A stretch of 19,326 nucleotides of DNA from a bacterium (GCA_046757025.1 JBHHXN010000098.1:1-19326); one strand, 5' to 3'. Positions 1 to 16,566 are shown, numbered from the stretch's first letter. A program made the numbers and translations. Notes: generated by a model not told the origin, from the letters alone.

Positions 1-166
1 CGGCAATCTGCGTTGAATTTGTGAGCGCAACAACAACACTGCCACCGCTATTTCCGGCGCCGCGTACGCCATTTGAAACGTAAAGAGAATCCGTTTGTGC
101 TAATATGTTTGAAGAGTATAGCAAGAAACAACATGTCCAAATAATTGATATAGTTTGCTTTTTCAT
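1..166 (-). CDS. Secreted protein, 5' part only (runs off the window); mature N-terminus resembles the start of a cohesin domain
   Basis: Not in the ORF track. Manual translation from ATG at 166 gives MKKQTISIIWTCCFLLYSSNILA|QTDSLYVSNGVRGAGNSGGSVVVALTNSTQIA..., open to the window edge. The SD AGGAG (173-177) overlaps the TAG stop of the upstream gene. It has a Sec-type signal peptide ending ILA|Q. The CDS call is firm; the cohesin call rests on only ~32 residues. Confidence 0.8.
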   Translation of the reverse strand, partial: MKKQTISIIWTCCFLLYSSNILAQTDSLYVSNGVRGAGNSGGSVVVALTNSTQIA

Positions 167-175
167 TGTGATCTC

Positions 176-1792
176 CTAATAAATTCCATACCAGAGTTTG
201 ATAAGTTGCTCGACCGGTTTGTTGCGTGGAGAGTTGCCCGTCATTGAATCAAAAAAGATACCCGGGTGGTCCAGCCCATCAAACCAGTCCCAACGTTGAC
301 TGAAAAGGCCACTCACCCAGCTTTCATCTTCCAATGCTTCCAAAAAACCCTCGTAATAGACAACTTGCTCACCATAATCTATATCCGTCACCGGTGGAGG
401 TGGTTCACTCTCGACCTGGGCATCCGAACTGTTCGCCTGGAAAGCAAAATATACCGGCACTTTGCTACCAACATCAGTCTCAAACCAATCAAAAAATGTT
501 TCTGTAATTTGCCGGATTTCTTGAACTGTGGGATTATGAGTATCACTAATGATTCCCATACCCAGATACATACCTGGGAATACGCCAATGCGCAACACAT
601 CTATGGCGTCGGCAAAGTCTAAATCTGTTGTACCGTAAACATCAATCGCGATTATGCCTGAATAACGTAAACGTACCGAATCGATGATAGCTCGCCAGCG
701 ATTGCCATATTCCGGAAAAGCCGAAGGACGGAAGGTGTCTTCAGCTCCAAGCAATACTGAGAGCATATCTGCTCCGTATTTTTCGGCTAATTCCGCTCTT
801 GGCAAAAGGTATTTTTCCCATTGATCGAACCAACTCGCCCACCATTGGTGTTGGGATTTATAAAACTCAAGGGAGTCCAATTCTCCAGCTCTCAAATTAA
901 ATCCCGGAGCCACTTGTTCGGTATGACTTATTTTGAATCCTTTTGAATGAGCGCTGGCAACTATAGCAGCATAATCTTTTTCGTTAGTAAGCGAAATGCT
1001 ATTATTTTCGGGCTTAATTTGTGGCAATGGAGCAATTCGCTGGTAAAAGGCGGCTGGTACAACACCAATCCATCCGGCTCCAATGCGCATAGCTGCGTCC
1101 ATTGCGCGGTTTTGAACGGCGGCAAGTGAATCAGAATTGTCCGGCGTAACATCAAAATGCGGTCCACCCAGTTCTCCGAACACATCATAAAAAATCAAGC
1201 CTTCGGCGTCGAAGTGCCGCACACCTACTTTACTGACCAACACATCCACTGTATCAAGGTCCGTTATGCTGGTAGGCTCTTTAAGCTGTAATTCAAAGCG
1301 ATAATTCCCCGGCCATTCGGGATTAAAAGTAGGCGTGGCGCTGGTGGAGTCGCTCAAGATCGCTTCGTTTTCTGTCATATATTCGGTGCTGTAACGATTC
1401 ATGTGCAACTGCCGCCAGCGATAGGTGAGCGTGTCGCCGTCCAGGTCAAACGAGCGCGTGGCATCCAATTGGATATTAGTTCCAGCCAATCCACTGTCCG
1501 GCGAGGCGCTGGCATCAGCCACAGGTGGACGGTTTACCCCGGCAATGGTATTTCTGATGAAAACCAGATCCTGCACCGTAATGCACCCATCGCGGTTCAT
1601 GTCGCCGGCTGCAATCTCATTTTGAGTCGCGGGCGGTAGTTTACCCAGAGCAATTTGTACACCGCGCGCGATGTCGGTGCTATCGACTTTGCTATCGCCG
1701 TTGATGTCGCCGGGCAAAGACTGTGAAATCACAATTTGAGGTAGAAAAAGAAGCGCCACATAGATCAGCAGCAAAGATCTGGTTTCATGCAT
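176..1792 (-). CDS. Secreted modular protein: signal peptide + type I dockerin + PKD/K319-like domain + GH113-like TIM barrel
   Basis: Two F-hand Ca-binding repeats, GDINGDSKVDSTD and GDMNRDGCITVQD (aa 28-75). PKD-like signature NRPPVADA...LDATRSFDLDGDTLTYRW...GNYRFEL (aa 87-186). C-terminal GH113-type motifs: AHSKGFKI, WFDQWEKY...AELAEKYGAD, WRAIIDSVRLRYSG, DYGEQVVYY, SPRNKPVEQLIKLWY. SD GGAGG at 1799-1803. Confidence 0.85.
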   Translation of the reverse strand: MHETRSLLLIYVALLFLPQIVISQSLPGDINGDSKVDSTDIARGVQIALGKLPPATQNEIAAGDMNRDGCITVQDLVFIRNTIAGVNRPPVADASASPDSGLAGTNIQLDATRSFDLDGDTLTYRWRQLHMNRYSTEYMTENEAILSDSTSATPTFNPEWPGNYRFELQLKEPTSITDLDTVDVLVSKVGVRHFDAEGLIFYDVFGELGGPHFDVTPDNSDSLAAVQNRAMDAAMRIGAGWIGVVPAAFYQRIAPLPQIKPENNSISLTNEKDYAAIVASAHSKGFKISHTEQVAPGFNLRAGELDSLEFYKSQHQWWASWFDQWEKYLLPRAELAEKYGADMLSVLLGAEDTFRPSAFPEYGNRWRAIIDSVRLRYSGIIAIDVYGTTDLDFADAIDVLRIGVFPGMYLGMGIISDTHNPTVQEIRQITETFFDWFETDVGSKVPVYFAFQANSSDAQVESEPPPPVTDIDYGEQVVYYEGFLEALEDESWVSGLFSQRWDWFDGLDHPGIFFDSMTGNSPRNKPVEQLIKLWYGIY

Positions 1793-2221
1793 GATGATCC
1801 TCCAGAGAGATTTTAATCAATTGATTTTGACGATGTCAATTTTGTGTGAAATCAGGTGATCTGGCATTTCGCTTTTGTACTCAACTTAGTAGAAATCTCG
1901 TAACCCAGGCCGATTTATTTCCCTTTCCGAAACCGTTAGTTAAAAAAGTACAAATATGAAATTTGTAATGTATATTCTTGCAGGACTGGAAATCCAGTTG
2001 AACTTGTCTTGAGGGGAAGAAACCTTATATATCCGCTTAAAAAATACAACAATAGCAGGTAAAAGACAATCGTAAAATTTCTGTCGTGTAAAATTTTGCC
2101 TACATGTGGTAGGTAAATGGAGTTTGTGATAAAATGGTTCATCGCTTCCGAGTTCGGTTTTCTAACAGCTTTTATCACTGACGTTCGATTGAAATTGATT
2201 TGCTAATCACTCCATGAGCCA

Positions 2222-3028
2222 TCAAATCAAAATATTTTTTTTCCTGTAGAACAGAAAGCTCAAAAAGATCAAACCACCTGAAATCCCGAATAAAACCATT
2301 AATCGCCAGAGGTCAAATCCGTAGTCAGGCGCCAGCACTTCCAGATTCATGTATTTGAAGGGGGTGAAGTATAAAAGAGCTGGCCATCTGTCGGAAATGC
2401 GAAACATCATATCAAACAGGTAGGCGCCCAGTACGATGCCGATACCAATTCCGATGACCGCTTTGGCGCGTTTCATTATAACGGTGATGAAGAAGCCGAG
2501 GACTCCGAAGAGAATACACACTAAAAAGCCGTAGGTGTGCAGGATGGTGAGCGCAGCGATATCAAAATTGCCTTTTGCAAATAGGTTGCAGCTAATTAAA
2601 GCCACTAAGTAAACAATTACATTGATTCCCAGCAAGTGCACCAATAAGCTCAGCAGCTTGCTGGCCACAATCTGGTCTCGGGATAGCGGCCGCGACAGGA
2701 GAAATTCCGCGGTTCGGTTCTGCTCTTCTTTGGATATCGATTTCATGGCCACGATTATCGCGTAGCAGCCCACGACGATGGGGACGTAGTAGATAAAGTA
2801 GGTCACGTAAAATCCCAAAATATTACTCCATTTGTTCAAATCGAGGTTGAACGCAATACGCATGGTTTCGGGAATGGCCGAGTACAAATCGGTGACTTTT
2901 TCTATGTTTTTGGTCATCGCCGAATAGATATTTAAACTGAAGACCACGTACAGCGCCACTCCTGCGCTCAAAATGACACTGCCTTTCAAATGGTCTCTCA
3001 GCTCTTTGATAAATAGATTCCAGCTCAT
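2222..3028 (-). CDS. ABC-2 type transporter permease
   Basis: About six hydrophobic segments and the motif ISKEEQNRTAEFLLSRPLSRDQIVASKL typical of ABC-2 permeases. Ends FYRKKNILI. ATGA overlap with the ATPase gene. Confidence 0.92.
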   Translation of the reverse strand: MSWNLFIKELRDHLKGSVILSAGVALYVVFSLNIYSAMTKNIEKVTDLYSAIPETMRIAFNLDLNKWSNILGFYVTYFIYYVPIVVGCYAIIVAMKSISKEEQNRTAEFLLSRPLSRDQIVASKLLSLLVHLLGINVIVYLVALISCNLFAKGNFDIAALTILHTYGFLVCILFGVLGFFITVIMKRAKAVIGIGIGIVLGAYLFDMMFRISDRWPALLYFTPFKYMNLEVLAPDYGFDLWRLMVLFGISGGLIFLSFLFYRKKNILI

Positions 3029-3924
3029 TTCTCATCCTCCTTTCGATGACCATCCTGATAAAAGTGTATGAAAACCTCTTCTAAAGCCGGTTCGGAGATG
3101 GTTATTTTTTCAATGGCCAGTTGTGACAGCTCTTTTAACAGAACAGGCATTTCCCCCTGATAGAGAAACGTCGCTTCATCTTTATCTGTGTGCAATGAAA
3201 TGATGCCGGGAGTCTGCAGGGAAATTCCTTCTGTATTTTTTAGTCGAATGGTCACCCGACTCAGGAGTTTTTCTTTTAAGGAATGAATTTCATCGATATT
3301 GACGATGCTGCCATCTTTGATGATGGCCACCCGGTGACACAATTTCTCCACTTCGCCGAGAACGTGCGAAGAGAAAAAGATAGTGGTGCCTTCAGCATTC
3401 ACTTCTTTGAGCACATCGAAGAAGTGATTTTGAATGAGCGGATCCAGTCCCGTGGTGGGTTCATCGAGGATGAGCAGCCGGGGCTGGTGTATCAGACTTT
3501 GAATGAGCGCCACTTTTTTCTTGTTTCCCATGGATAAGTCGTCGATTTTTCTGGTGAGATCCAGCGAGAGAATGTCCAAAAGTCGCTGCAAATGCGGTTG
3601 GGTGCTCACACCGTAAAAGCGGGCAGAATATTCGAGGAGCTCTTTGACAGTCATGTTCTCGTAGTAATGCACTTCCGACGGCACAAAGCCCACCATCTGT
3701 TTGATTTTCGGACCCTCTGTGACAATGTCGTGATGGAATATGCGGCCACGGCCGCGGGTTGGGTAAAGCAGGCTCAACAAGAGCCGAATGGTGGTGGTTT
3801 TGCCGGCGCCGTTGGGACCGATGAACCCGAATATTTCTCCTTCGGCAACTTGTAAATTGAGATCGAGGATCCCCCGGGCCTGGCCGTAGTATTTGGTGAG
3901 ACCTTCCGTTTCAATGGCTTGCAT
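3025..3924 (-). CDS. ABC-2 type transporter ATP-binding protein
   Basis: Walker A GPNGAGKTT, signature LSMGNKKK, Walker B LLILDEPTTGLDP, H-loop SSH. SD AGGAGG at 3931-3936. Confidence 0.96.
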   Translation of the reverse strand: MQAIETEGLTKYYGQARGILDLNLQVAEGEIFGFIGPNGAGKTTTIRLLLSLLYPTRGRGRIFHHDIVTEGPKIKQMVGFVPSEVHYYENMTVKELLEYSARFYGVSTQPHLQRLLDILSLDLTRKIDDLSMGNKKKVALIQSLIHQPRLLILDEPTTGLDPLIQNHFFDVLKEVNAEGTTIFFSSHVLGEVEKLCHRVAIIKDGSIVNIDEIHSLKEKLLSRVTIRLKNTEGISLQTPGIISLHTDKDEATFLYQGEMPVLLKELSQLAIEKITISEPALEEVFIHFYQDGHRKEDEK

Positions 3925-4127
3925 ACGTGTCCTCCTTCATACCGTCGTGACAGCATGGAATGGAATGGGATGGGATGCTTTATCATAGAATCTTGGTAAA
4001 CGACACCTAAACAACACGAGCATGTGCTCTTTCCGACTGAGGTTTTGATAACAGCTCAATAAGACGGTCGAGTGTTTGCGGTAGAGTTGCGGCAGGATGA
4101 TTGGTTTTTTGCCTCAGTCTGTAGAAT

Positions 4128-4156
4128 ATTATAAATAATCACCTTTTGAATTGCAA
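4128..4156 (-). promoter_or_regulatory. Sigma70-type promoter of the ABC operon
   Basis: Minus strand TTGCAA (4156-4151), 17-nt spacer, TATAAT (4133-4128). Predicted +1 near 4121-4120. Confidence 0.75.
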
Positions 4157-4211
4157 CAAAAAAATGTGGCGGTTGTGTGGTGAAATTTCCCTGAATCGTT
4201 TTAAAATTCGA

Positions 4212-4258
4212 TTCTTACAAATAAGAAAATAAAATCTACATTTTGTCATAAATAAGAA
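4212..4258. promoter_or_regulatory. Paired upstream activator-like sites for the sigma54 promoter of ccmF
   Basis: Palindrome TTCTTA-CAAA-TAAGAA (4212-4227) and a 13/16 identical copy TTGTCATAAATAAGAA (4243-4258), 31 nt apart, about 110-155 nt upstream of the predicted +1. Confidence 0.5.
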
Positions 4259-4342
4259 ATGGCCGGGTGCATTCTTAATTTGGTTGGGCGAAAAGTAGTT
4301 AATTTAAAAGAGCTTACATGAATTACTTCTATTAGCTGGTTG

Positions 4343-4357
4343 TGGCATACAGCTTGC
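4343..4357 (+). promoter_or_regulatory. Sigma54 (RpoN) -24/-12 promoter upstream of ccmF
   Basis: TGGCATACAGCTTGC versus consensus TGGCAC-N5-TTGC. Exact GG-N10-GC spacing (4344-45, 4356-57), ending 42 nt before the GTG start. Confidence 0.72.
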
Positions 4358-4399
4358 CCATAAGGTAAAAAAATTGAATTTTAATAGAAGGAGAATGCT

Positions 4400-6643
4400 G
4401 TGGGAAAGTTACTGATCATTCTGGCTCTTGTTTCCACCGGTGTTTCCGCGTGGAGCTACTACACTCGTTTGAATCCGGCAGACCGTCCTAAAGGTAAACG
4501 CAAAAAGAAAGCCAATCAGCCAAAACCCCCTCTTGATATCGCCAGGTACGGCTTTTATTTCATGAGCGTTTTTGTGACTCTGGCTTCGTTTTATCTACTG
4601 TATTTGATTTTTGATCATCAATTTCAGTACAGTTATGTGTATCGATACAGCGCAAAAAATTTATCTTTTGGGCTGCTGCTTTCCACTTTCTGGGCCGGGC
4701 AGGAAGGCTCGTTTCTGCTCTGGGCCTGGTTCATCGCGATTATGGGTTTGATATTCATTAAGACCGCCCGCAAATACGAAAATCACGCCATGTTTTATCT
4801 GAATTTGGCGCAGGCGTTTTTTCTGTTGCTGTTGGTGAAAGTCAGTCCGTTTGCAGAGCAGGCACACGCTCCGCTGGATGGGCGCGGTTTGAACCCGCTG
4901 CTGGAAAATTTCTGGATGATAATCCATCCACCGCTGCTGTTTTTGGGTTACGCAGCCGCAACTATGCCGCTGGCACTGGCCCTGGCCGCGATGACCAAAA
5001 GAGATTACGGCGATTGGGTACGGCAGGCGCTGCCGTGGTCGTTGTTTACCTCGGTGACCCTGGGCGGCGGCATCATTTTGGGTGCGTTTTGGGCGTATGG
5101 CACCTTGGGCTGGGGCGGCTACTGGGGCTGGGACCCGGTGGAAAATTCTTCGCTGATTCCCTGGCTGGTTAATTTTGCGCTGTTCCACGGGCTGATCGTC
5201 GAGAAGATGAGAGGCGCCCTGCGGAGGACCAATCTCGCTTTGGCCGTGATTTCCTTTGTGCTGGTGATCTACGCCACCTTTCTTACCCGCAGCGGCGTGC
5301 TGGCGGATTTTTCTGTGCACTCGTTTCAAGACCTTGGCATCAATGCGTATTTGATCATGTTCATGCTTGGCACCCTGGGTTTTGGATTGGGGATTTTATT
5401 CAGCCGCTTCCGAGAGATCAAGGCTCAGCCCATCAATCTTTCCGAGTTGAATCGCGAAAACGTGTTGTTGATCAGCATGGTGGTGCTGCTGGGCTCGGGA
5501 CTGGTCACCATTCTGGGTACCTCCTTCCCATTGATTTCAAGACTGTTCACTCAGCCTTCCAACGTCAACATCAGCTTTTACAATCAGGTGAATCTGCCTT
5601 TTGCCATCGCCATGACGGTGTTGCTGGGAATTGCGCCCGTTTTAAAATGGGGGGCGTCTAACCGAGAATTGCTCAAACGGCTGTCGATTTCTCTGGTGTT
5701 AACGGCGTTATCCGCCGTGTTTGCTTTTCTGCAAGGCGTGCGCGACGGGGTCATTTTGTTGTTCATGACCACCACTGCCTTTGCGTTCTTTTCAAACGGT
5801 CAGGTGCTGCTGCAGCAACTGCGTTTTAATTGGCGCATGACCGGCGCGTCGCTGACGCATGTGGGTGTGGCGCTGATGTTTCTGGGCATCATCGTGTCCG
5901 GCAATTTCGACGAGGAGCAGCATGTGGTGCTCACTCAGGGCGAACAAACCACGGTATTGGGCAAGCAGCTCCTGCTGGAAGGGTTGAGCCCAAAAGAAAA
6001 TGGCAAAGATGAATTGAACATCCGGGTGGTCAGTGAGGAGTCGGAATATGTAGCGAATCCCCGACATTATTATTCTGAATATAATAAAGGCATGATGCGG
6101 GAGCCGTTTATCGATTACGGTTGGGTGCAGGATTTTTATATTTCACCCATCGAAACCCGGACTGGCGATCAACACGATGAGCACGTCCAGCTTTACCTCA
6201 AAAAGGGCGAGAAAAAACAGCTTGACGGGTTTGAAATTCTCTTCACGAGTTTTGAAATGCACAGTCATGCCGAAAACGGCGTCATGCAGGTCGGAGCCAA
6301 ACTGGAGATCGCTCAGGGGGAGCAAAAATTTGCCGTCACCCCAGCTTTGATGATGTCCGGCAACCAGCGAAAGGCTGTACCGGCCGAGTTTCCTGTTTCT
6401 GCAGGCAACTACAGCAGCAAGCCCAGCGTTTCGCTGGTGGGGATCAATGCCAACGAAAAAAGCGTGCAGCTGGATTTTCACGGGCTCGGAAATCCCGCTA
6501 ACGGCGATGCCGTACCAGTCAAAATGCAGGCCTCGATCAACGTCAGCAAGAAACCGTTTATGAATGTGCTCTGGCTGGGAACGATTTTGATCAGTTTGGG
6601 CACCGTCATTTCCATCAAACGCAGGAGCTCGGAACCCGCTTAG
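4400..6643 (+). CDS. ccmF: Cytochrome c biogenesis heme lyase, CcmF/NrfE family (System I)
   Basis: WWD domain WGGYWGWDPVENSSLIPW, plus FWAGQEGS and GLNPLL. The four conserved His are present in IHPP, LFHG, SVHSF and THVG. Many TM segments. GTG start with SD AGGAG at 4389-4393. Confidence 0.95.
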   Translation: MGKLLIILALVSTGVSAWSYYTRLNPADRPKGKRKKKANQPKPPLDIARYGFYFMSVFVTLASFYLLYLIFDHQFQYSYVYRYSAKNLSFGLLLSTFWAGQEGSFLLWAWFIAIMGLIFIKTARKYENHAMFYLNLAQAFFLLLLVKVSPFAEQAHAPLDGRGLNPLLENFWMIIHPPLLFLGYAAATMPLALALAAMTKRDYGDWVRQALPWSLFTSVTLGGGIILGAFWAYGTLGWGGYWGWDPVENSSLIPWLVNFALFHGLIVEKMRGALRRTNLALAVISFVLVIYATFLTRSGVLADFSVHSFQDLGINAYLIMFMLGTLGFGLGILFSRFREIKAQPINLSELNRENVLLISMVVLLGSGLVTILGTSFPLISRLFTQPSNVNISFYNQVNLPFAIAMTVLLGIAPVLKWGASNRELLKRLSISLVLTALSAVFAFLQGVRDGVILLFMTTTAFAFFSNGQVLLQQLRFNWRMTGASLTHVGVALMFLGIIVSGNFDEEQHVVLTQGEQTTVLGKQLLLEGLSPKENGKDELNIRVVSEESEYVANPRHYYSEYNKGMMREPFIDYGWVQDFYISPIETRTGDQHDEHVQLYLKKGEKKQLDGFEILFTSFEMHSHAENGVMQVGAKLEIAQGEQKFAVTPALMMSGNQRKAVPAEFPVSAGNYSSKPSVSLVGINANEKSVQLDFHGLGNPANGDAVPVKMQASINVSKKPFMNVLWLGTILISLGTVISIKRRSSEPA

Positions 6644-6776
6644 CATCTGGTTGAACAATTTCTCGCAACGGAGGGTCTATGAGGTAATAGGCACGGATAG
6701 GCTTACAATAAAATTTGCAATTTTCAAAGGCAAATCTTATTTTATTTCGTAAAACGATTGAAGGAGCCGCTATAAA

Positions 6777-6891
6777 ATTGCAGGGGGTGGAACTTCGGTG
6801 CTCAGAAAAGGGAGTCCGGACACCCCCTACAGTCTGCCTCGAGGGTGGGGGAATAACCAGCTTTTCCATCGAGGATTCCGCTGAGCGGGAT
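6777..6891 (+). ncRNA. Candidate structured RNA element (two hairpins plus possible pseudoknot), family not recognised
   Basis: GC-rich island in an AT-rich spacer. Stem 6777-6789/6821-6833 has 12 of 13 pairs. Second stem 6837-6852/6862-6874. Loop TGCTCAG (6799-6805) is complementary to CTGAGCG (6881-6887). Folded by eye only. Confidence 0.4.
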
Positions 6892-6989
6892 AGAAGGGGG
6901 GCACATCTCATAAAGAATTAAATATTTCCTTATACTAAAATCAGAAATCGTGGATAATCATTTATCAACCAAACGAGAGGAGGAGGAAT

Positions 6990-9113
6990 ATGAATTGTTG
7001 CCAAATCCAAACATTAAACAAGCATTCCCATCGCACTTTTCATCGATTTGTTTTGACCTGGTCGGTTGTGACGGTGATTTTCGTGCTATTTATTGGCTTC
7101 GCCAAAAGTTCTGCCAGCGAAGTCTTGAGTCCGGCAGATTTGCTCAAGCTGAAATCGGTGAGCAGCGCGGAGATCAGTCCCGATGGTAATTGGATAGCCT
7201 ATACCCTGCGGGTGCCTCGCACAGCCGATGACCAGCCCGGCGGTGCCTACAGCGAGCTGCACCTGCTTTCCGTGAAAACCGGCCAGTCGAGGCCGTTCAT
7301 CACCGGTAAAGTGGTGGTGTCGGGATTAGCCTGGAAACCGGACGGCTCGGCCATCGCTTTTCGCACGCGCCGCGGCAGCAACGCTAAAACGCAGGTGTGG
7401 ATGATTCCGGTGGACGGCGGCGAGGCACAGCAGCTTACACATGCCAATAATACCGTGTCGAGTTTCAAATGGCATCCCTCCGGGAAAAAACTGGCCTATC
7501 TTGCCACCACCCCGCCATCCAAGCGAGAAAAAAAACTGGCGGAAAAGGGCTACGGCTTCATTTTCTTTGAAGAAAATCTCAAACATCGCAATCTTTATCT
7601 GTTGGATCTAACAGACGAACAGGAAACCCGAGCCGCCAGCCAGCTCACAGAAAATGTCACGGTTTGGTCTTTTGAGTTCTCTCCAGAGGGAGAGACCATT
7701 GCAGCAGCCATTACCCAAAAGAATCTCGTGGACCACCGATACATGTTTCAAAAAATCTACCTGCTGGATGTGGCCAGTAAAAAGCTCACCCAACTCACGG
7801 ACAATCCCGGCAAACTGGGGAATTTCGTATTCAGCCCGGACGGACGCTATCTGGCCTATGCGGCGGCTTTGGAAAGAAAAGATCATGCCGTGAGTCAGGC
7901 GTTTGTCATTCCCGTTACCGGCGGAGAAGCCCGGAATCTAACCGAGCCGAATTTTCGGGGTCACGTCAACTGGGTGGGCTGGAAGGACAAAAACACGCTC
8001 ATCTACCGCGCTGGCGAAGGAGTGTGGTCCACACTCAGTGCCGTGAACGTGTCTGGTGGTAAGCGCAAGATCCTTTTAAATTCCAGAGAGGAGGGTGTGA
8101 TTTTCAGCGCACCCAGCGCCACCTCCAATTTTCAGCACCTTTCCTTTATCGGGCAATCGCCGGAGAGCCCTGGCGAAGTTTATTACTGGAGGAGCGGTAA
8201 AAAGCTGCGCCGATTAACCGTCAGCAACCCCTGGCTGGCGGAGCGAAAGCTGGGCAAACAGGAAGTGGTTCGTTACCAATCGCGAGATAACTGGGATGTG
8301 GAGGGCCTGCTCATCTATCCGGTGGACTATCAAACCGGTCAGAAATACCCGCTGGTGGTGCTGGTGCACGGCGGACCGGAATCGCACTTTTACAACGGCT
8401 GGCTGTCCAATTATTCCCGTCCTGGACAGGTCCTGTCTGGCAAGGGGTATGCGGTATTTTATCCCAATTATCGCTCCAGCACCGGCTACGGTCTGGAATA
8501 TGCTGCCATCGGATACAACGAAGCCGCTGGGCGGGAATTCGATGATATTGCCGACGGCATCGATTTTCTGGTGGAGAAAGGCATCGCAGATCGTGAGCGA
8601 GTGGGCCTGGGCGGCGGTTCTTATGGCGGATTTGCCTCGGCCTGGTTCGCCTCGTACTACACGAAATACGTCAAAGCGGTGTGTATGTTTGTGGGCATCA
8701 GCGATCTTATCAGCAAGCGCGGCACTAGCGACATTCCGTACGAGGAGCTGTACGTGCATTCCGGCAAAAAACTGGAAGAGATGTGGGAACAGAGTTTGAA
8801 ACGCAGCCCCATTTACTGGGCGCATCAAAGCAAAACCGCGACTTTGATTTATGGCGGTACCGCGGATACCCGTGTGCATCCTTCTCAGAGCCTGGAATTT
8901 TACCGCCGCCTGAAAATGAACGACCACCCAGCGGTGCGGCTGGTTCGCTACCCGGGCGAACCGCACGGCAACCGTAAACAGACCGGCCAGATCGATGTGC
9001 TTTATCGAATCATAGATTGGTACGATTGGTACGTGAAGGAAGCCAAACCGCTGAACGGTCCCATGCCGCCGTTGGATATCAGCCATAAGTACGGATTGGA
9101 TTTGCCGGAGTAG
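6990..9113 (+). CDS. Secreted S9 family serine peptidase (dipeptidyl aminopeptidase/acylaminoacyl peptidase-like)
   Basis: Signal-like N-terminus and beta-propeller repeats (ISPDG, WKPDG, FSPEG, FSPDG). VHGGP motif. Catalytic triad GGSYGG (Ser), ADTRV (Asp), GEPHG (His). Strong SD GAGGAGGAGG. Confidence 0.95.
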   Translation: MNCCQIQTLNKHSHRTFHRFVLTWSVVTVIFVLFIGFAKSSASEVLSPADLLKLKSVSSAEISPDGNWIAYTLRVPRTADDQPGGAYSELHLLSVKTGQSRPFITGKVVVSGLAWKPDGSAIAFRTRRGSNAKTQVWMIPVDGGEAQQLTHANNTVSSFKWHPSGKKLAYLATTPPSKREKKLAEKGYGFIFFEENLKHRNLYLLDLTDEQETRAASQLTENVTVWSFEFSPEGETIAAAITQKNLVDHRYMFQKIYLLDVASKKLTQLTDNPGKLGNFVFSPDGRYLAYAAALERKDHAVSQAFVIPVTGGEARNLTEPNFRGHVNWVGWKDKNTLIYRAGEGVWSTLSAVNVSGGKRKILLNSREEGVIFSAPSATSNFQHLSFIGQSPESPGEVYYWRSGKKLRRLTVSNPWLAERKLGKQEVVRYQSRDNWDVEGLLIYPVDYQTGQKYPLVVLVHGGPESHFYNGWLSNYSRPGQVLSGKGYAVFYPNYRSSTGYGLEYAAIGYNEAAGREFDDIADGIDFLVEKGIADRERVGLGGGSYGGFASAWFASYYTKYVKAVCMFVGISDLISKRGTSDIPYEELYVHSGKKLEEMWEQSLKRSPIYWAHQSKTATLIYGGTADTRVHPSQSLEFYRRLKMNDHPAVRLVRYPGEPHGNRKQTGQIDVLYRIIDWYDWYVKEAKPLNGPMPPLDISHKYGLDLPE

Positions 9114-9186
9114 ATGGGGGTGGAAGATAGAAGATAGAAAATTGTGACTTGAATTCCGATTTCAGGTTTTCGATGATTAATTGTAG
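9110..9186. repeat. Degenerate 7-nt periodic tandem repeat (STRR-like)
   Basis: GTAGATG GGGGTGG AAGATAG AAGATAG AAAATTG TGACTTG AATTCCG ATTTCAG GTTTTCG ATGATTA ATTGTAG. G is at position 7 in 10 of 11 units and a pyrimidine is at position 5 in 10 of 11. Confidence 0.55.
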
Positions 9187-9223
9187 CCCCGGATTCGGAT
9201 TAAGGGTCCGGGGCTTTGTTTTT
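9185..9223 (+). terminator. Intrinsic terminator after the S9 peptidase, overlapping the 3' end of the convergent kinase gene
   Basis: 12-bp stem AGCCCCGGATTC/GGGTCCGGGGCT (two G-U pairs), 7-nt loop, followed by TTGTTTTT. Confidence 0.8.
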
Positions 9224-11176
9224 ATTCTGGCTATTGACGTACTTATTCTCACCGTCAACCATTTCATGCAGATTGTCGGGAATGGAGATGGTAAAGGTGG
9301 TGCCTTTGCCCACCTTGCTTTCCACTCGAATATCCCCTTTGTGTTTTAAAACGATGTTGTACGAGGAATACAGACCGGTGCGCATGCGCACACGTGATTT
9401 TTTTTCTGTGAAGCCCGGCTCAAATAGTTGGGCGATTTTTTCTTCTGGAATGCCTTTGCCGGTGTCGGCAATTTTGATATTAATGTGACCGTTTTCTTTG
9501 AAGGTCTGGATGCTTATGGCGCCCTGCTCCGGGATGGCTTGGATGGCATTCAACAAAAGATTCATGAAAACCTGATTCAGTTCGCTGGGAAAGTGGTATA
9601 TTTCAGGGATGTCGCCGTATTCTTTACGGATGATGATGCCGTCTTTTAAATCGTGCTCCAGAAGGGTGAGGGTGTTCTCCAATCCGTCGTGGATATGCGT
9701 TTTTTGAAATGTGGCTTCGTCCAGGCGTGAAAAGTTTTTCAGGCTTTTGATGATTTTTAAGATACGATTGGTGCCGCGGGTGGTGATTTCGTTGTTCTGC
9801 TGTAAAATTTCATAAATGGAAATCAGTTTTTTATAGTGCTCTTTTGTTTTTTGAATATCCGTGGACTCCAATATTTGTTTTAAGATGTCACACACCCGTT
9901 CGGCCACATCCACGGAGCTTTTGATGGCGCCGATGGGACTGTTTATTTCATGGATGATGCCGGCCACCAATTGCCCCAAGGCCACCATTTTACCCGACTG
10001 CACCAGCTGCGCCTGCGTAGCGTTGAGCTGCTTCAGCGTTTGTTTCAGGGCGTCGTTTTTAGCTTTCAGCTCGACGTTTTTCAGCCGGTAGATTTCCGCT
10101 TCCTTTTTGGAGGATTCGATCTGATAGGCGGATTTGAGATTTTTAAACTGCGTTTCGGTGTCTTCGTGAAACACTTCTTCGTGGATGGCGTGGTACTTTT
10201 CATGATGCGCCAGAGCTTTTTCGAGCTGTCCGAGTGGTTTGTAACACTGGTACAATGCCTCATGAGCTTTGCTGGTCTTGATCTTCGCCTTGACTTTTTG
10301 CGAGAGCACCAGCGCTTCATGTAAAATTTTCAGGGCTTGCTGGATTTTTTTTTGCTTGAGATATACCTGACCAATGTCCAGCAGGTTGGTGGTTTCCCCC
10401 TGGGGATAATTTATTTTACGGCGAATGACCAGACTTTTTTGATGATATTCCAGCGCCTCTTCATATTTTTCCAGACTCTGAAAAATCAGTCCGATATCGT
10501 TTAACGTTTTCGATTCGCCATACAAGTATTCCATAGACTGGTTGATCTTCAGGCTTTTTCTTTGGTACGCCAATGCTTTGGTGTGGTCGCCCATGAGATG
10601 ATAAGCATTCCCGATGCCGTTCAGGGCACGCGCCTGGCCATTGAGATTCTGAGTGTCTCTAAATATGCCGTAGGCTTTTTTAAAATGCTCGCGCGATTGT
10701 TGGTAATTTTTCCAGTCGTAATAGAAGCTGCCCAGGGTGTTGTATGCCCAGGCCCGGCCATCGCAATTGTTGAATTTCTCGAAAATTTTGAGGGTTTTCG
10801 AAATGGCGTCAAAGCCGCGCTGGAAATCGCCGAATCCCCAATAGATGAAGGCCAGTCCGTGGTTGGCATTGGCCTCGCCTTCCAGGTCGTGGTGGTCTTC
10901 AAACCACTGCAGGGCGTCCAGCAGATTGCTCATGGCTTTTTCCACTTCCGCCCGCGAATAGCAGAGGTAACCCATGTTGGTTTTTGCATGAGCCAGCCCT
11001 CGGTCGTAGGCAATTTTTTGCGCTAATTGAAAACTTTCCTCTGCAACTTCCTGGGCGCGTTTGGGCTCGGTTACCCAGATTTCTCTGAACAGCGCGTTGA
11101 GCAAATCGACCCGCTTCTGGTGCTCCTTGCCCACAGCTTGTAATTGCGATTCGAGATTTTGAATTTTTGAGTTCAT
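9200..11176 (-). CDS. Soluble TPR-repeat sensor histidine kinase (NtrB-like HisKA + HATPase_c)
   Basis: N-terminal TPR array (e.g. ARALNGIGNAYHLMGDHTKALAYQRKSL) and a coiled coil. H-box VAGIIHEINSP, N-box NQVFMNLLLNAIQA, G1 DTGKGI, F-box LFEPGFT, G3 GKGTTF. No TM segment. Confidence 0.93.
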   Translation of the reverse strand: MNSKIQNLESQLQAVGKEHQKRVDLLNALFREIWVTEPKRAQEVAEESFQLAQKIAYDRGLAHAKTNMGYLCYSRAEVEKAMSNLLDALQWFEDHHDLEGEANANHGLAFIYWGFGDFQRGFDAISKTLKIFEKFNNCDGRAWAYNTLGSFYYDWKNYQQSREHFKKAYGIFRDTQNLNGQARALNGIGNAYHLMGDHTKALAYQRKSLKINQSMEYLYGESKTLNDIGLIFQSLEKYEEALEYHQKSLVIRRKINYPQGETTNLLDIGQVYLKQKKIQQALKILHEALVLSQKVKAKIKTSKAHEALYQCYKPLGQLEKALAHHEKYHAIHEEVFHEDTETQFKNLKSAYQIESSKKEAEIYRLKNVELKAKNDALKQTLKQLNATQAQLVQSGKMVALGQLVAGIIHEINSPIGAIKSSVDVAERVCDILKQILESTDIQKTKEHYKKLISIYEILQQNNEITTRGTNRILKIIKSLKNFSRLDEATFQKTHIHDGLENTLTLLEHDLKDGIIIRKEYGDIPEIYHFPSELNQVFMNLLLNAIQAIPEQGAISIQTFKENGHINIKIADTGKGIPEEKIAQLFEPGFTEKKSRVRMRTGLYSSYNIVLKHKGDIRVESKVGKGTTFTISIPDNLHEMVDGENKYVNSQNKNKAPDP

Positions 11177-11371
11177 AACTTGGTCCGGCTCATTATGTCG
11201 TGTTCCGGCATTTCGATGAACGGCTAAAAATCGGTGTGTTAATCATTAAAACATGATTTTTTGACTGGCTATTTCAAATTGTCCAAAGAAATTTAGCGTT
11301 TTGCGAATACCGAAGATTTTTTGTTTCCAGATTTGGATGATTTTATTTTGTTTGTTGAATTTCACGCCAAA

Positions 11372-11400
11372 AAGTTACCATTATTTATTCATTTTGTCAA
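11372..11400 (-). promoter_or_regulatory. Sigma70-type promoter of the histidine kinase
   Basis: Minus strand TTGACA (11400-11395), 17-nt spacer ending in TGG, then TAACTT (11377-11372). Confidence 0.6.
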
Positions 11401-11522
11401 TCATTTGTTGAGTTTCCGCAAACAGAAAAATTTATTATGGGCAATTGGAAACTTAAGTCGAGCAATAATTGGCCAGAAGTTGGATGGATAACGCCCCGCA
11501 ATGGGTAAATGCTGTTACAAAA

Positions 11523-11567
11523 TGTTATAATTTTTTGGTTGAATAGCAGGAACGAAAATGGTAATTT
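11523..11567 (+). promoter_or_regulatory. Candidate tandem sigma70 promoters of the VPS10/BNR gene
   Basis: Extended -10 TGTTATAAT (11523-11531). A second candidate is TTGAAT (11539-11544), 17-nt spacer ending in TGG, then TAATTT (11562-11567). Confidence 0.55.
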
Positions 11568-11699
11568 TGAAGGATGAAACCCGTAAAACAGGTCCACTCT
11601 GTTTACGAAAAGAATATTCGGGCGACTCAAAGTAAGCATTTTGTCTCATTCATTTTCCAAAGCAAAAACACCATCATTTACCAACGAAGAGGAGGAATC

Positions 11700-14600
11700 A
11701 TGGATTTTATTTATCCTGAACAGAAAGGGCATGACAATCGGAATGTTCTGATCCTGATGTGTGTTTGTTTGTTGTCGTTTTTTATGCAGAGTGCAGCATA
11801 CGCTCAAAAGCTCGATATGGATAAGCTCCACGGTTTGAAAGCTCGCAGCATCGGCCCAGCGGGCATGAGCGGCCGGGTGACGGCCATTGATGCGGTGCAC
11901 ACAAACCCGGACATCATTTACGTGGGAACGGCTTCGGGCGGATTGTGGAAATCCACCAGCGGCGGCATCGACTGGCAGCCCATATTCGATGATCAGCCGG
12001 TGGCGTCCATTGGCGCGGTGGCTATCGTCCAGCGCACGCCGGACGTCATCTGGGTGGGCACGGGCGAGGGCAATCCCCGCAACAGCCAGACCAGCGGCAA
12101 CGGCGTGTACAAGAGCCTCGACGGCGGTAAAACCTGGCAGCATCTGGGGCTGGCCAATTCCCGCAACATTCACCGACTGCTCATCGATCCGTTTGATCCC
12201 GACATCGTTTACGTAGGTGTGCAGGGACCCGCCTGGGGTGAAAGCTCCGAACGCGGGGTTTACAAAACCACCGACGGCGGCAAAACCTGGAAGCGCATCC
12301 TGTTTGCGAACAACAAAACCGGCATTGCGGATCTGGTCATGGATCCCGTGAATCCCAACAAACTTTATGCTGCCCTGTGGGAGTTCCGGCGCTGGCCGTG
12401 GTTTTTCAAGTCCGGTGGGCCGGGCTCTGGATTGTACATCACTTTTGACGGCGGAGAAAATTGGCAAAAACGCACCCACGAAGACGGGCTGCCTAAAGGC
12501 GAGCTCGGTCGCATCGGACTGGCGGTAGCGCGCAGTGCGCCTAACAAAGTGTACGCCCTGATAGAGGCCAAAAAGAACGCTTTGTATGGCTCCGAAGACG
12601 GCGGTTTTAAATGGCGCAAAATTGCCGACCGAAACATCGGTAATCGGCCTTTTTATTATGCGGAAATTTATGTGGACCCTCAGAATGAGAATCGCATTTA
12701 CAACCTGCATTCCAGCGTCACCGTCAGTGAAGACGGCGGCAAAACGTTTCGCAGTTTTATTCCAAGATCAAAAATTCATCCGGATCATCACGCCTTCTGG
12801 ATTCATCCCGAAGACGGCAGCTTTATGATGGATGGCAACGACGGTGGCATGGCCATCTCTCACGACCGCGGTAAAACCTGGCGCTTTGTGGAAAATCTGC
12901 CGCTGGCGCAATTCTATCACATCAACGTCGATATGGAGATGCCCTACCATGTGTACGGCGGCATGCAGGACAACGGCTCCTGGCGTGGTCCGAGTCAGGT
13001 GTGGCGGGCAGGTGGCATTCGCAATGCCTACTGGGAAGAAGTGGCTTTTGGCGACGGCTTTGATGTGGTGCCCGACCCGAGCGATTCCCGCTACGGCTAC
13101 GCCATGTCCCAGGGGGGCAATTTGCGGCGTTATAATCTGGTCACCGGCACCCAAAAACTCATTCGGCCGGTGCATCCGGATGGCGTGCAATTGCGCTTCA
13201 ATTGGAATGCCGGCATCGCGCCGGATCCGTTCGACAAAAAGACCATTTACTACGGTAGCCAGTTTCTGCACAAAAGCCCCGATCGCGGCGATAGCTGGCA
13301 AATCATTTCGCCGGATCTCACCAGCAACGATCCGGAAAAACAAAAGCAGTTGGACAGCGGCGGCCTGACGTACGACGTAACCGCGGCTGAAAATTTCACC
13401 ACCATTGTCGCCATCGCACCCAGCCCGGTGCAGCGAAACGTCATTTGGGTGGGAACCGACGACGGTCAGGTTCAGCTCACCCGGGACGGCGGCAAAACCT
13501 GGACCAATGTGGTAAAGAAAATCAAAGGCGTGCCGGCAGGCACCTGGGTACCCCAGATTCAGGCTTCTACTTACGCGGCAGCCGAAGCGTTCGTGGTGTT
13601 TGACAATCACCGCCGCAACGATTGGACGCCGTACGTTTATCACACTAAGAATTTCGGCAAATCGTGGAAACGCCTGGCAGATGAAAAAGATGTGTTTGGT
13701 TATGCGCTGGCCATCGCGCAAGACCCGGTGGCGCCCAATCTGCTGTTTCTGGGAACCGAGTTTGGTCTCTATGTCAGCATCGATTTCGGCGCCAACTGGA
13801 GCAAGTGGAAACCCGGCTTTCCCACCGTTTCCACCATGGATCTGGTCATTCATCCCCGCGACCACGACCTGGTGATCGGCACATTCGGCCGGGCCGCGTA
13901 TGTACTCGATGACATTCGACCGCTGCGGGCGCTGGCACAAAAAGGCGCGCAACTGCTGAATAAACCCGTCCATGTCTTTGATATTCCGGATGCCAGCATT
14001 ACTATTCGTAAGCAAGCTGCAGGTACCAGATTTGCCGGGGAAGCTGAATTTTCTGGAGAAAATCGCCCGCGCGGGGCGTTGATCAGTTTTGTGTTTAATC
14101 CCGATACTACAGCAAAAAAAGCGAAAACAGTTAAAGGCGCTCGCAAAGCACGCGGGAAGCCGGCGCACTCTGAGCGGGCTAAATCCGCAGCGGACAGCGT
14201 CAAAATCGAAATACGAAACGCCGCCGGGGAGTTGATTCGGACTTTGCGGGCGCCGGCCAAACCCGGCATCAATCGCACCACCTGGAGGCTAGACCGAAAA
14301 GGCGTGCGTTTTCCCACGCAGCCCAAACCGCGTCCCGGAGCGCGCGAACGCGGCGGTATGCCGGTGATGCCCGGCACTTACACCGTGCGCATTCACAACG
14401 GCGGCCATGTAGACTCCGCCACCGTGGAGGTGAAATTGGATCCGCGCGTGGAAATCGCCCGCTTCGATTTGCAAAAGCGATTTGGTGCCATAGAGCGGCT
14501 GATGAAAAAAGTGCAAGTGGCCACCGACGCGGCAGATCGTTTGCGTGAGGCACAAAAGACCATCCGTTTGATTACGGGACAAATTCGAGAGCGCAAAGAC

Positions 14601-14936
14601 GACGCCGCCAAAGATCTGAAGAAAAAGGGCAAGGCTCTGCAGGATTCTATCAAAACCCTGTTGGAGCTGATAAACCCGCGTGAAGTCCAGGGCATCCGCC
14701 GGGATCCCAATATTGTCAGCGCGAAATTGCGTTCGGCATTTTCGTATCTGCGCTCCTCCATGGAGGCGCCGGGCGAAACCGAAAGCATCGCGGTCAAGCA
14801 AGCCGAAGACAGCATTCAGGAAGTGCTGGATAAATTTAATGCGTTTTTTGATAAGGACTGGCGGGATTATTTCAACGCGGTCAATGCCGCCGACATCAAG
14901 CTGATTGAAGAATATGAGCCGTTAAAAATAGAATAA
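11700..14936 (+). CDS. Secreted VPS10/sortilin-like beta-propeller protein with BNR/Asp-box repeats (often annotated glycosyl hydrolase), ~1078 aa
   Basis: RSIGPAGMSGRVTAI, many S/TxDGGKTW Asp-boxes, YGGMQDNGSW, GDGF, RFNWN, and a C-terminal Ig-like plus helical tail. Start moved from 11574 to the in-frame ATG at 11700, which has SD GAGGAGG and restores an N-terminal signal peptide ending AYA|Q. Confidence 0.92.
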   Translation: MDFIYPEQKGHDNRNVLILMCVCLLSFFMQSAAYAQKLDMDKLHGLKARSIGPAGMSGRVTAIDAVHTNPDIIYVGTASGGLWKSTSGGIDWQPIFDDQPVASIGAVAIVQRTPDVIWVGTGEGNPRNSQTSGNGVYKSLDGGKTWQHLGLANSRNIHRLLIDPFDPDIVYVGVQGPAWGESSERGVYKTTDGGKTWKRILFANNKTGIADLVMDPVNPNKLYAALWEFRRWPWFFKSGGPGSGLYITFDGGENWQKRTHEDGLPKGELGRIGLAVARSAPNKVYALIEAKKNALYGSEDGGFKWRKIADRNIGNRPFYYAEIYVDPQNENRIYNLHSSVTVSEDGGKTFRSFIPRSKIHPDHHAFWIHPEDGSFMMDGNDGGMAISHDRGKTWRFVENLPLAQFYHINVDMEMPYHVYGGMQDNGSWRGPSQVWRAGGIRNAYWEEVAFGDGFDVVPDPSDSRYGYAMSQGGNLRRYNLVTGTQKLIRPVHPDGVQLRFNWNAGIAPDPFDKKTIYYGSQFLHKSPDRGDSWQIISPDLTSNDPEKQKQLDSGGLTYDVTAAENFTTIVAIAPSPVQRNVIWVGTDDGQVQLTRDGGKTWTNVVKKIKGVPAGTWVPQIQASTYAAAEAFVVFDNHRRNDWTPYVYHTKNFGKSWKRLADEKDVFGYALAIAQDPVAPNLLFLGTEFGLYVSIDFGANWSKWKPGFPTVSTMDLVIHPRDHDLVIGTFGRAAYVLDDIRPLRALAQKGAQLLNKPVHVFDIPDASITIRKQAAGTRFAGEAEFSGENRPRGALISFVFNPDTTAKKAKTVKGARKARGKPAHSERAKSAADSVKIEIRNAAGELIRTLRAPAKPGINRTTWRLDRKGVRFPTQPKPRPGARERGGMPVMPGTYTVRIHNGGHVDSATVEVKLDPRVEIARFDLQKRFGAIERLMKKVQVATDAADRLREAQKTIRLITGQIRERKDDAAKDLKKKGKALQDSIKTLLELINPREVQGIRRDPNIVSAKLRSAFSYLRSSMEAPGETESIAVKQAEDSIQEVLDKFNAFFDKDWRDYFNAVNAADIKLIEEYEPLKIE

Positions 14937-15020
14937 AATCCACTTCGAATTCGGCAGTGTGTTCAAATTAAGGTTTAATATTTCAGAAAAAATCGTATTT
15001 TAATAAGATATTTGAATGGA

Positions 15021-15135
15021 GCGTTTTTTGTCAGGGAACGTCATCCCCGCATGTGTTTAGCGAAAACCCGTTCACCATGTGAGAATGAGAATCCGGTATC
15101 CACATGTGGGAATAATTGTTTTGACTCAAAAAAGC
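15021..15135. repeat. Decayed GTCA-type palindromic (REP/RPE-like) element
   Basis: GTCATCCCCGCATGTG (15040-15055) is matched by inverted CACATGTGGGAATAAT (15101-15116), 12/16 identical to the expected CACATGCGGGGATGAC. Outer imperfect arms are GCGTTTTTTGTCA / TGACTCAAAAAAGC. Confidence 0.55.
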
Positions 15136-15420
15136 ACCGTTTTAAATTACATCAGTTCAGGTGATATAACATTTCGAAATCTGGGACGAGAAAACGAGGA
15201 TGACGATGTGTTCCGGATGGCGCCGGAATATAAATGGATCCACTGTGCAGAATCGGCAAACCGGACCCTCCGGGCGTTCTGAATTATGCGAGACTTGGTG
15301 TTTGTCCGGCAGATTTGAAACTGGGCGGAAAAGCGAAGTTTCTGGCAAATGTACCGCCATCGGTCAAAATGGGTTGATCCACCCGATTGGAAGTGAATTT
15401 TTGAAAAGAAAGGTTGTATT

Positions 15421-16566
15421 ATGAAGCGCAAAGCCTTGATTATTCTACCGTTCATCATCATCGGCATCGGCTACTTGGGCATGCAAATATTGGCGAATTT
15501 GCGCACGGATCCGCCCAAAAAAATGCCCACGCCCTATCCCAAACTCGTGGATGCCATGCGTGTGGAGCTTCGGGACGTGCCGGCAGAAATCGTCGCTTAC
15601 GGACGTCTGACTTCGGCGCAACCGGTGATTTTGTACAGCGAAGTGGCTGGCAAACTGATGGCGGGCCAAAAACCTTTCCAGCCCGGGCAAACGTTTAAAA
15701 AAGGCGATCTTCTTTTGAAGATCGATGATCGCCAGGTGCGGTTGGATTTAAACAGCGCCAAAAGCGACTTCCTAAATGCGCTGGCCTCGGTGCTGCCGGA
15801 AATTAAAGTGGATTTTCCAGATGAATTTGAAATCTGGCAGAACTATTTCAACAACTGTAAATTTGACCAGAAATTGGCTGATTTGCCCAAAGTAAATAAC
15901 CAAAAGATCAAATTATTTTTATCAAGATTTAACGTTTACAAATTGTATTTTTCTGTGCGCAATTTGGAGATTCTGCTGGATAAGCACTTTTTCCATGCGC
16001 CATTTTCCGGCGCCATCGTTTCCACAGACCTGCGTGTGGGCTCCACCGCGCGCAACGGCACCCGTCTCGGTGAAATCATTAATTTAGAAGATATGGAGGT
16101 GGAAGTACCGGTGCCTGCAAAGGATGTGCAATGGATCGATCACAACCGGCCGGTGAAATTCAGCTCCTCTGAAATCGCCGGCCGTTGGACTGGCAGAATC
16201 AAACGCGTGGGTAAGGCCATCGATACGCGCACGCAGACCATCCCCGTGTTTATTTCAATCGACCACAATAAGGCCAATGAAATTTACAGCGGGGTTTTCC
16301 TCAAAGCGCAAATCCCCGGTCGAATCATCCCGCAGGCCGTGGCCATTCCTCAAAAAGTGCTTTACAATGAAAAGTATGTTTATTTGATCAAAAACGGCAA
16401 ACTGGATTTCCGAGAAGTGGAAATCGCCCGCCGGGAAACCGAATCGGCCATCATCACGCAAGGGGTGCAAAGCGGCGATACGCTGGTGGTGGAAGTCCTT
16501 CAGGGGGTGGCTCCCGGCATGCTCGCAAAAGGAAACATCATCAGCCCAGAGCACGGGAGTAATTGA
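15421..16566 (+). CDS. RND efflux periplasmic adaptor (membrane fusion protein)
   Basis: N-terminal TM anchor. Lipoyl half-motifs SEVAGKL...GQTFKKGDLLLKID and APFSGAI, plus IDTRTQT and GVQSGDTLV. Coupled to the RND pump by a TGATG overlap. Confidence 0.93.
   Translation: MKRKALIILPFIIIGIGYLGMQILANLRTDPPKKMPTPYPKLVDAMRVELRDVPAEIVAYGRLTSAQPVILYSEVAGKLMAGQKPFQPGQTFKKGDLLLKIDDRQVRLDLNSAKSDFLNALASVLPEIKVDFPDEFEIWQNYFNNCKFDQKLADLPKVNNQKIKLFLSRFNVYKLYFSVRNLEILLDKHFFHAPFSGAIVSTDLRVGSTARNGTRLGEIINLEDMEVEVPVPAKDVQWIDHNRPVKFSSSEIAGRWTGRIKRVGKAIDTRTQTIPVFISIDHNKANEIYSGVFLKAQIPGRIIPQAVAIPQKVLYNEKYVYLIKNGKLDFREVEIARRETESAIITQGVQSGDTLVVEVLQGVAPGMLAKGNIISPEHGSN

Follow-up and report, generated by a model that had tools for sequence, protein, structure and literature searches.

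Two adjacent genes at the very end of a bacterial contig raise the question of whether a dockerin protein and a cohesin protein are made there as a pair, and what such a pair would be for. The window, meaning the whole stretch of DNA that was analyzed, covers bases 1 to 19,326 of contig C98; the genome (G000) comprises 5.96 Mb in 374 contigs and is 94.8% complete. The original prediction tentatively read the two genes as a mini-cellulosome-like operon, in which a dockerin client is coupled to a secreted scaffold.

The gene pair and its surroundings

The features of the window are as follows.

176..1792, minus strand: ORF1, 538 aa, consisting of signal peptide, dockerin, PKD domain and GH113-fold barrel, without a T9SS CTD
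1724..1792, minus strand: predicted Sec signal peptide of ORF1 (aa 1-23, by reading the sequence)
1544..1714, minus strand: two-repeat type I-like dockerin (aa 27-83, Pfam PF00404)
1226..1534, minus strand: PKD/Ig-like domain (aa 87-189)
179..1222, minus strand: GH113-fold (beta/alpha)8 barrel without the nucleophile Glu (aa 191-538)
167..178, minus strand: ORF1 stop TAG (178-176) overlapping the ORF2 ribosome-binding site AGGAG, with a 9-nt spacer
1..166, minus strand: first 55 codons of ORF2, truncated where the contig stops; homologues show the probable remainder
166-98, minus strand: ORF2 signal peptide (aa 1-23)
97-2, minus strand: first 32 residues of the ORF2 cohesin-like domain, identified via homologues
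2222-3924: ABC-2 permease and ATPase
4400-6643: CcmF
6990-9113: S9 peptidase
9200-11176: TPR histidine kinase
11574-14936: VPS10/BNR propeller protein
15421-19326: membrane-fusion protein and putative RND-type pump

The junction described in the original prediction, a TAG overlapping AGGAG with a second secreted ORF beginning 9 nt past the stop of the first, can be read directly in the sequence, the ORF2 ATG lying at 166-164. Since the window is the start of C98, and the first 300 bases of C98 overlap none of the other contigs, the remainder of ORF2 lies outside the assembly. No orphan cohesin fragment or carrier remainder fitting ORF2 was recognized in the genome, and contigs from four public hydrothermal-vent runs of one study, one of them perhaps the source, cover window positions 1-2400 but supplied no letters beyond position 1. 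The proposal to retrieve the sequence to the left of the window therefore failed for want of an overlapping contig, but the likely layout of the missing part was obtained from a paralogue on contig C71 and from a longer homologue, P0159.

Several variant contigs were seen in the public runs, and over window positions 1-160, the start of ORF2, the summed contig depth is 2-6x that of the ORF1 interior. The contig of a second genome, G001, breaks at nearly the same place as C98. The assembly may have broken at ORF2 because several related copies are present. Just upstream of ORF1 on the minus strand is a sigma-70-like site (TTGACA-18-TAAAAT, window 1810-1839, 11/12 match); as three such sites were found where 4.8 are expected, the promoter-like site at 1839-1810 is kept out of the evidence. 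The genes in the rest of the window (2222-19326) look ordinary.

The N-terminal region of ORF1

The original prediction of a two-repeat dockerin directly after the signal peptide of the 538-aa protein is borne out by Pfam, in which Dockerin_1 (PF00404) matches aa 27-83 with an E value of 1.7e-9 and 38.2 bits against a cut-off of 22.9. Mature ORF1 is predicted to begin at Gln24, and homologues align from the same Gln. Both calcium loops follow the D-x-N-x-D...D pattern when read from the sequence, with loop 1 formed by D29/N31/D33/D37/D40 and loop 2 by D64/N66/D68/T72/D75; D29, D40, D64 and D75 are invariant across 46 aligned dockerins. Profile A3 also matches solved dockerins, for example 4uyq_B at E 2.7e-14. 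The two repeats (window 1544-1714) are asymmetric at recognition positions 10/11, with Ser-Thr in one and Val-Gln in the other. Under the type I recognition rules, this asymmetry would suggest a single binding mode.

Three features of ORF1 go beyond the original prediction, namely the PKD domain, the GH113-fold domain and the absence of a CTD, which was not found in the Pfam scan of the protein. PKD-family matches to aa 87-186 have E values of 1e-4 to 4e-4, all under their cut-offs, and the PKD domain of the C71 paralogue of ORF1 is over the Pfam cut-off. ORF1 itself has neither a secretion tag nor a membrane anchor.

The barrel of ORF1

The remainder of ORF1 has the (beta/alpha)8 fold of clan GH-A, as indicated by Pfam, the predicted model and Foldseek. 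The Pfam GH113 match spans aa 231-504 (E 3.3e-17), and the best PDB matches are GH113 mannanases (profile E 3e-8; Foldseek E 1.7e-17, TM 0.69, from a model whose input alignment included 13 canonical GH113 rows). Catalysis by GH113 requires two glutamates, according to the available part of PMC9032380, and the ORF1 barrel does not keep both of them. In the alignment the nucleophile column holds Glu in 17/17 canonical homologues and in 0/7 members of the ORF1 family, ORF1 having Phe451. The 17 canonical homologues, which come from related genomes, all contain the G-[TVI]-E and [FLI]-T-E-[IV]-G motifs; from GH113 structures, we take the FTEIG glutamate to be the nucleophile. Predicted strand 7 of the barrel (aa 447-451) contains no acidic residue. 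The acid/base Glu is not conserved, the candidate Glu351 being kept in three of the seven family members. A library search with the family profile returned 45 representatives at E <=1e-30, among which the nucleophile Glu is present in 4 and absent in 41. It is likely, judging from these substitutions, that the ORF1 barrel is non-catalytic, and it probably binds a glycan instead of cutting one, which is a guess from the fold.

The nucleophile-less GH113-fold family (P0009-P0158) is broad, and many of its members have lipid or membrane anchors.

The identity of ORF2

The cohesin call for ORF2 depends on homologues, because the 55-aa fragment, with 32 residues of the domain itself, matched no family in Pfam or NCBIfam and reached only E 0.014 against a local cohesin-like profile. 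When the 55 residues were compared by BLAST with the ORFs of the same genome, the sole genuine match (E 4.6e-10) was to a frame of 740 codons that directly follows the paralogue of ORF1 on C71. The C71 protein consists of a signal peptide, a domain of ~140 aa, FG-GAP repeats, ASPIC/UnbV and a Por_Secre_tail CTD. P0159 (733 aa), the one match among 62 candidates in a search of longer proteins, is 84% identical across all 55 aa of ORF2 and has the same layout, with a single cohesin-like domain, an FG-GAP propeller, ASPIC/UnbV and a CTD; between P0159 aa 24-162 and the C71 domain, identity is 61%. Por_Secre_tail is over its cut-off in both proteins, marking these ORF2 homologues as T9SS substrates, and the body of the ORF2 homologue matches the CRTAC1-like structure 9etn (E 2.2e-11).

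The N-terminal domain of the C71 protein was modeled from a 21-homologue alignment (pLDDT 92.6), and the predicted model has the nine-stranded beta-sandwich of a cohesin. Foldseek matched it to type I cohesins (TM 0.83-0.85, E ~1e-9), the listed matches all being cohesin or cohesin-dockerin entries, and the profile of the 21 homologues matched the cohesin 2xdh at E 9.3e-10 and 4uyp at E 1.6e-6. In the proposed scan with the two Pfam models, the dockerin is over its cut-off and the cohesin is not: the C71 domain scores 19 bits against PF00963, below the cut-off of 24.1, and Pfam Cohesin does not match P0159 or the ORF2 fragment. The same model does match 15 of the 21 homologues of the C71 domain at E <=1. 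The cohesin-like N-terminus originally proposed for ORF2 is thus supported through P0159 and through the C71 domain, which is predicted to fold as a type I cohesin. On sequence and model evidence from its homologues, ORF2 is very likely a single-cohesin, CRTAC1-like CTD protein.

Recurrence of the pair and exchange of the anchor

Comparison of the window pair with the C71 pair gives 83% identity for the dockerin, 47% for PKD and 28% for the barrel, a gradient in keeping with diverged cargo behind a plug that is either under constraint or of recent common origin. Of the genes around the C71 pair, the five that were seen all end in a CTD, and the dockerin gene alone lacks one. In G001, which belongs to the same family, an ORF1 orthologue (82%) is followed by the start of ORF2, where that contig stops as well. 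In a Rhodothermales MAG, one cohesin-FG-GAP-ASPIC-CTD gene comes after two dockerin-PKD-barrel genes. C29 encodes a cohesin-less FG-GAP/ASPIC/CTD homologue and has no dockerin gene, which speaks for a tether. Among 167 genomes of the phylum, the Doc-PKD module had any match at E 1e-15 in five, and full-length matches were confined to G000 and G001. One match, in G112, was dropped for having no corresponding gene among ORFs >=100 aa. When metagenomes were scanned with the Doc-PKD alignment, the 67 loci obtained encoded nothing but generic dockerins, <=47% identical.

Other arrangements of these modules occur in G000. On C45 (minus strand) a CTD-less protein with a C-terminal dockerin (12867-13988) is followed by a stand-alone cohesin-like ORF of ~150 aa (12013-12681) with no evident signal peptide or CTD, and the same arrangement is seen at loci L271 and L285. 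On C17 (43897-50263) an [X-Doc-Coh-CTD] gene is followed by two cohesin-first CTD genes, and C147 and C83 encode Coh-Doc proteins that are cut by contig ends.

The relatives of the barrel carry other N-terminal modules. By labels assigned by eye, the 24 best library hits comprise 6 with a lipoprotein-type Cys and a Thr/Pro-rich linker, 6 with a strongly hydrophobic N-terminal helix, 4 with a confirmed dockerin, and 8 fragments or other forms. A tree of 30 barrels was built from 22 of these 24 hits, 5 dockerin proteins and 3 canonical GH113 sequences. The dockerin clade that includes the window (5 rows, support 100/97) is sister to a clade of 13 rows (96/90), with a joint branch of 98/97; in the sister clade, the place of the dockerin is taken by a lipoprotein-type Cys in 6 members and by a strongly hydrophobic N-terminal helix in 6. 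As the tree is midpoint-rooted, it does not give the direction of the swap between anchor and dockerin. Dockerin and CTD occur together in 0/150 barrel homologues (7 with each), which is uninformative, as ~0.3 is expected by chance. For two related barrels in G012, neither a dockerin or CTD nor a neighboring cohesin gene was detected, which counts against a tether. These tandem PKD-barrel relatives (L032:7892-12316, contig C13 of G012) stand upstream of genes that are presumably microcompartment-like.

Dockerin and cohesin genes across the class

Dockerin_1 is present in 92/101 genomes of the class (150 matches listed and 238 more). The census sample consisted of 120 regions, mostly the better ones among the matches listed, merged by contig, plus one region of G009. 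The 120 census regions contain 141 dockerin ORFs, a detection that is partly circular, as the annotation profiles were built from the same loci and from the genome's own CTDs. In 49 of the 69 CTD-bearing dockerin ORFs a cohesin lies between dockerin and CTD, giving a fused Doc-Coh-CTD order. Unassigned segments were not counted as cohesins; Pfam Cohesin matched 4/19 of those between dockerin and CTD and 0/8 of those in downstream genes.

A cohesin-first CTD gene lies downstream of 20/63 CTD-less dockerin genes, 17/65 CTD-bearing dockerin genes and 7/114 other CTD genes, after genes with unknown downstream DNA (7, 3 and 4, respectively) were left out. The two dockerin classes do not differ (Fisher p 0.56). 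Dockerin genes of either class precede such a gene in 37/128 cases, a rate that links them to cohesin genes by exceeding that of other CTD genes (7/114), with the caveat that kin are not independent. Seen from the other side, the upstream neighbor of a cohesin-first CTD gene is a CTD-less dockerin gene in 14 of 29 cases. Two results count against a tether: 43 of the 63 CTD-less dockerin genes have no detected downstream cohesin-first gene, and 16 of the 20 positives belong to one operon family at 11 loci and, as kin, are not independent. The dockerin is N-terminal, as in ORF1, in just 6/71 CTD-less cases, and a cohesin-first CTD gene follows in 4/4 of those whose downstream DNA is complete, among them an S8-peptidase/PPC pair in G009 that is unrelated.

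This operon, conserved in the class, consists of [Coh-Doc-Coh-CTD], one or two CTD-less [X-Coh-Doc] genes and then a minimal [signal-Coh-CTD] gene. It occurs at L250, L263, L272, L284, L288, L302, L310 (cut by the contig end), L321, L345, L346 and L351, and resembles a chain assembly that includes a bare adaptor. At L258, L264, L277, L314 and L337, a second family of CTD-less proteins ends in an 'HRNH'-motif module and a diverged dockerin. The genes of this 'HRNH' family are followed by a CTD gene whose unassigned N-terminal domain is not matched by Pfam Cohesin.

A probable 1:1 surface tether and its alternatives

The best reading of the locus is likely a 1:1 surface tether, not a cellulosome, with binding predicted. 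It is reasonably probable that the ORF1 dockerin clips onto the ORF2 cohesin, and that the ORF2 CTD supplies export and surface attachment. Both proteins would reach the periplasm by Sec, where the calcium-loaded dockerin of ORF1 would bind the single cohesin of ORF2 in a 1:1 ratio. The CTD would then route ORF2 through SprA, after which PorU would anchor or release it, and ORF1 would be displayed on ORF2, probably binding a glycan rather than cutting it. For Bacteroidota, the available part of PMC11611037 describes cleavage of CTD proteins by PorU, after which they are anchored to LPS or released. The host genome encodes SprA and PorU over the cut-offs, a PorV-like gene that falls just short of its 250-bit cut-off with 237 bits, and 182 ORFs that end in a CTD. 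GldM was not found in the host genome, and control genomes were equally silent. Of the cognate pair in a diderm that was originally proposed, the conserved gene pair and the diderm host with T9SS genes stand, and the scaffold framing does not. Because ORF1 has no CTD, three fates are open to it, namely passage together with ORF2, a different way out, or retention in the periplasm; under the tether reading it would cross the outer membrane either bound to ORF2 or by another route followed by docking outside.

The first of these routes defines a sub-case of the tether, in which ORF1 binds the ORF2 cohesin in the periplasm and passes through the T9SS translocon (SprA) as a passenger, the pair being mainly an export (and display) device for CTD-less proteins. 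ORF1 has a signal peptide and no CTD, the two genes are tightly coupled, and at 11 loci of the class a CTD-less dockerin gene is followed by a minimal [signal-cohesin-CTD] adaptor gene; the 14 CTD-less dockerin genes found upstream in 29 cases of a cohesin-first CTD gene point the same way. This form of the tether is nevertheless rather unlikely. The census does not favor it, since CTD-bearing dockerin genes precede cohesin-first genes as often as CTD-less ones (17/65 versus 20/63, p 0.56), so that the pairing is not specific to proteins in need of a ride. In addition, SprA would have to pass a complex of roughly 135 kDa, and a GspE-like ATPase over its cut-off, together with two weak secretin matches in the host genome, leaves another exit. 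Alternatively, the two proteins may not be cognate: the dockerin could be a calcium-binding module or could bind other cohesins, with ORF1 remaining periplasmic and the adjacency reflecting cassette transfer. The exact module is rare, with a full match in 2/167 genomes of the phylum and one Rhodothermales MAG, and the copies may therefore go back to a single cassette; about nine cohesin-like ORFs of the genome are possible partners of the dockerin, and many dockerin genes have no cohesin neighbor. However, unrelated client and carrier pairs occur in the same order (G009 and the 11-locus operon family), a cohesin-first gene lies behind dockerin genes more often than behind other CTD genes, with the same caveat on kin, and the ORF1 dockerin occupies the position of its relatives' anchor. 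A non-cognate pair is thus considered unlikely.

The idea of a polysaccharide-degrading complex, in which glycoside hydrolases such as a mannanase are brought together on a scaffold, is consistent with a real dockerin, a GH113 fold and the cohesin fold of ORF2 homologues. Moreover, an adjacent one-cohesin/one-dockerin pair enhances cellulase activity in Cellulosilyticum lentocellum, as far as the available part of PMC13487519 reports. Yet the nucleophile Glu is absent in 7/7 family members, present in 17/17 canonical homologues and found in 4/45 of the best library hits, and the acid/base Glu is not conserved in the barrel family. There is one cohesin per protein, and Pfam finds no CBM in ORF1 or the partner homologues. 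The genome-wide module count put forward as a check on the original prediction gave three cohesins and three dockerins over the Pfam cut-off (seven and four with our own profiles), and two of these three dockerins are on nucleophile-less barrels. The cohesin-like ORFs, about nine in union, have one match each; no protein has more than one cohesin match and no multi-cohesin scaffoldin was found in the 374 contigs of this 94.8% complete genome. A cellulosome calls for a scaffoldin with multiple cohesins, as a rule with a CBM, and for several dockerin-bearing active polysaccharidases, neither of which was found in this genome. A cellulosomal role is accordingly very improbable, and the terms mini-cellulosome and scaffold do not suit a partner with a single cohesin, a genome in which no multi-cohesin protein was found and a client that lacks the GH113 nucleophile.

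The tether reading offers a small, testable case in which a diderm with T9SS would use a cohesin-dockerin interaction for surface anchoring, and the barrel relatives that carry lipid or membrane anchors instead of a dockerin provide a natural comparison. Through its barrel, the case also draws attention to a large group of proteins annotated as GH113 that are probably pseudoenzymes. If ORF1 does travel as a passenger, gain of a dockerin would allow a non-catalytic GH113-fold family that is elsewhere lipid- or membrane-anchored to be displayed on the surface of a diderm. Such co-export would mean that T9SS carries non-covalent passengers, which would change the prediction of T9SS secretomes and could provide a plug-in display tool.

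Comparison with known systems

A literature search covering titles and the starts of abstracts, with few subscription papers, found no description of this module, of dockerin-mediated T9SS co-export or of a non-catalytic GH113 family. The surprise is limited, since cohesin-dockerin pairs in diderms have already been predicted in print for Ca. Stygibacter and Chlorobium, in the available parts of those reports.

At the level of single domains, the ORF1 barrel resembles the GH113 endo-beta-1,4-mannanases (AaManA, 3civ/4cd6; BaMan113A, 7dv7; 5yli) in sequence and fold, but is ~20% identical and lacks both the nucleophile Glu and the Y-A-A-N-W motif. The body of the ORF2 homologue resembles the CRTAC1/ASPIC-UnbV FG-GAP propeller proteins (PDB 9etn), to which ORF2 homologues add an N-terminal cohesin-like domain and a C-terminal CTD. 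The comparators for the interaction are the type I clostridial pairs (CaCohA2-Doc0917, 6kgc-6kgf; A. cellulolyticus ScaC-ScaB, 4uyp/4uyq) and the non-cellulosomal Archaeoglobus protein 2xdh. The cohesin fold of the C71 paralogue domain (TM 0.83-0.85) and the two-loop dockerin of ORF1 are like those of type I pairs, although identity is 12-17% and the arrangement here differs in its single cohesin, absence of a scaffoldin, N-terminal dockerin, diderm host, carrier ending in a T9SS CTD and client without a catalytic nucleophile.

A cellulosome-like complex with a CTD-bearing scaffoldin has been predicted for Ca. Stygibacter (Cloacimonadota), in the available part of PMC8542988. Like the system described here, and as a prediction only, it involves a diderm, secreted dockerin proteins and a CTD cohesin protein thought to be surface-attached. 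The Ca. Stygibacter scaffoldin, as given in that part of the source, has 3,755 aa with tandem cohesins and CBMs, and the dockerins are C-terminal on enzymes, whereas in the window two neighboring genes would supply a 1:1 pair, and the dockerin is N-terminal on a probable pseudoenzyme. ClcC/ClcD of Cellulosilyticum lentocellum also consist of one cohesin and one dockerin encoded by adjacent genes, and were shown to form a heterodimer (PMC13487519, available part); they come from a Firmicute with no outer membrane or T9SS and have cellulase activity. Cag_2037/Cag_2038 of Chlorobium chlorochromatii are a predicted adjacent-gene cohesin/dockerin pair (bioRxiv 10.64898/2026.03.19.712371). The available part of that preprint describes a type II cohesin and a C-terminal dockerin, proposes RTX/T1SS export and mentions no CTD carrier; as at the locus described here, the genes are adjacent in an FCB diderm, an N-terminal cohesin faces a dockerin partner, and the proposed role is that of a surface tether.
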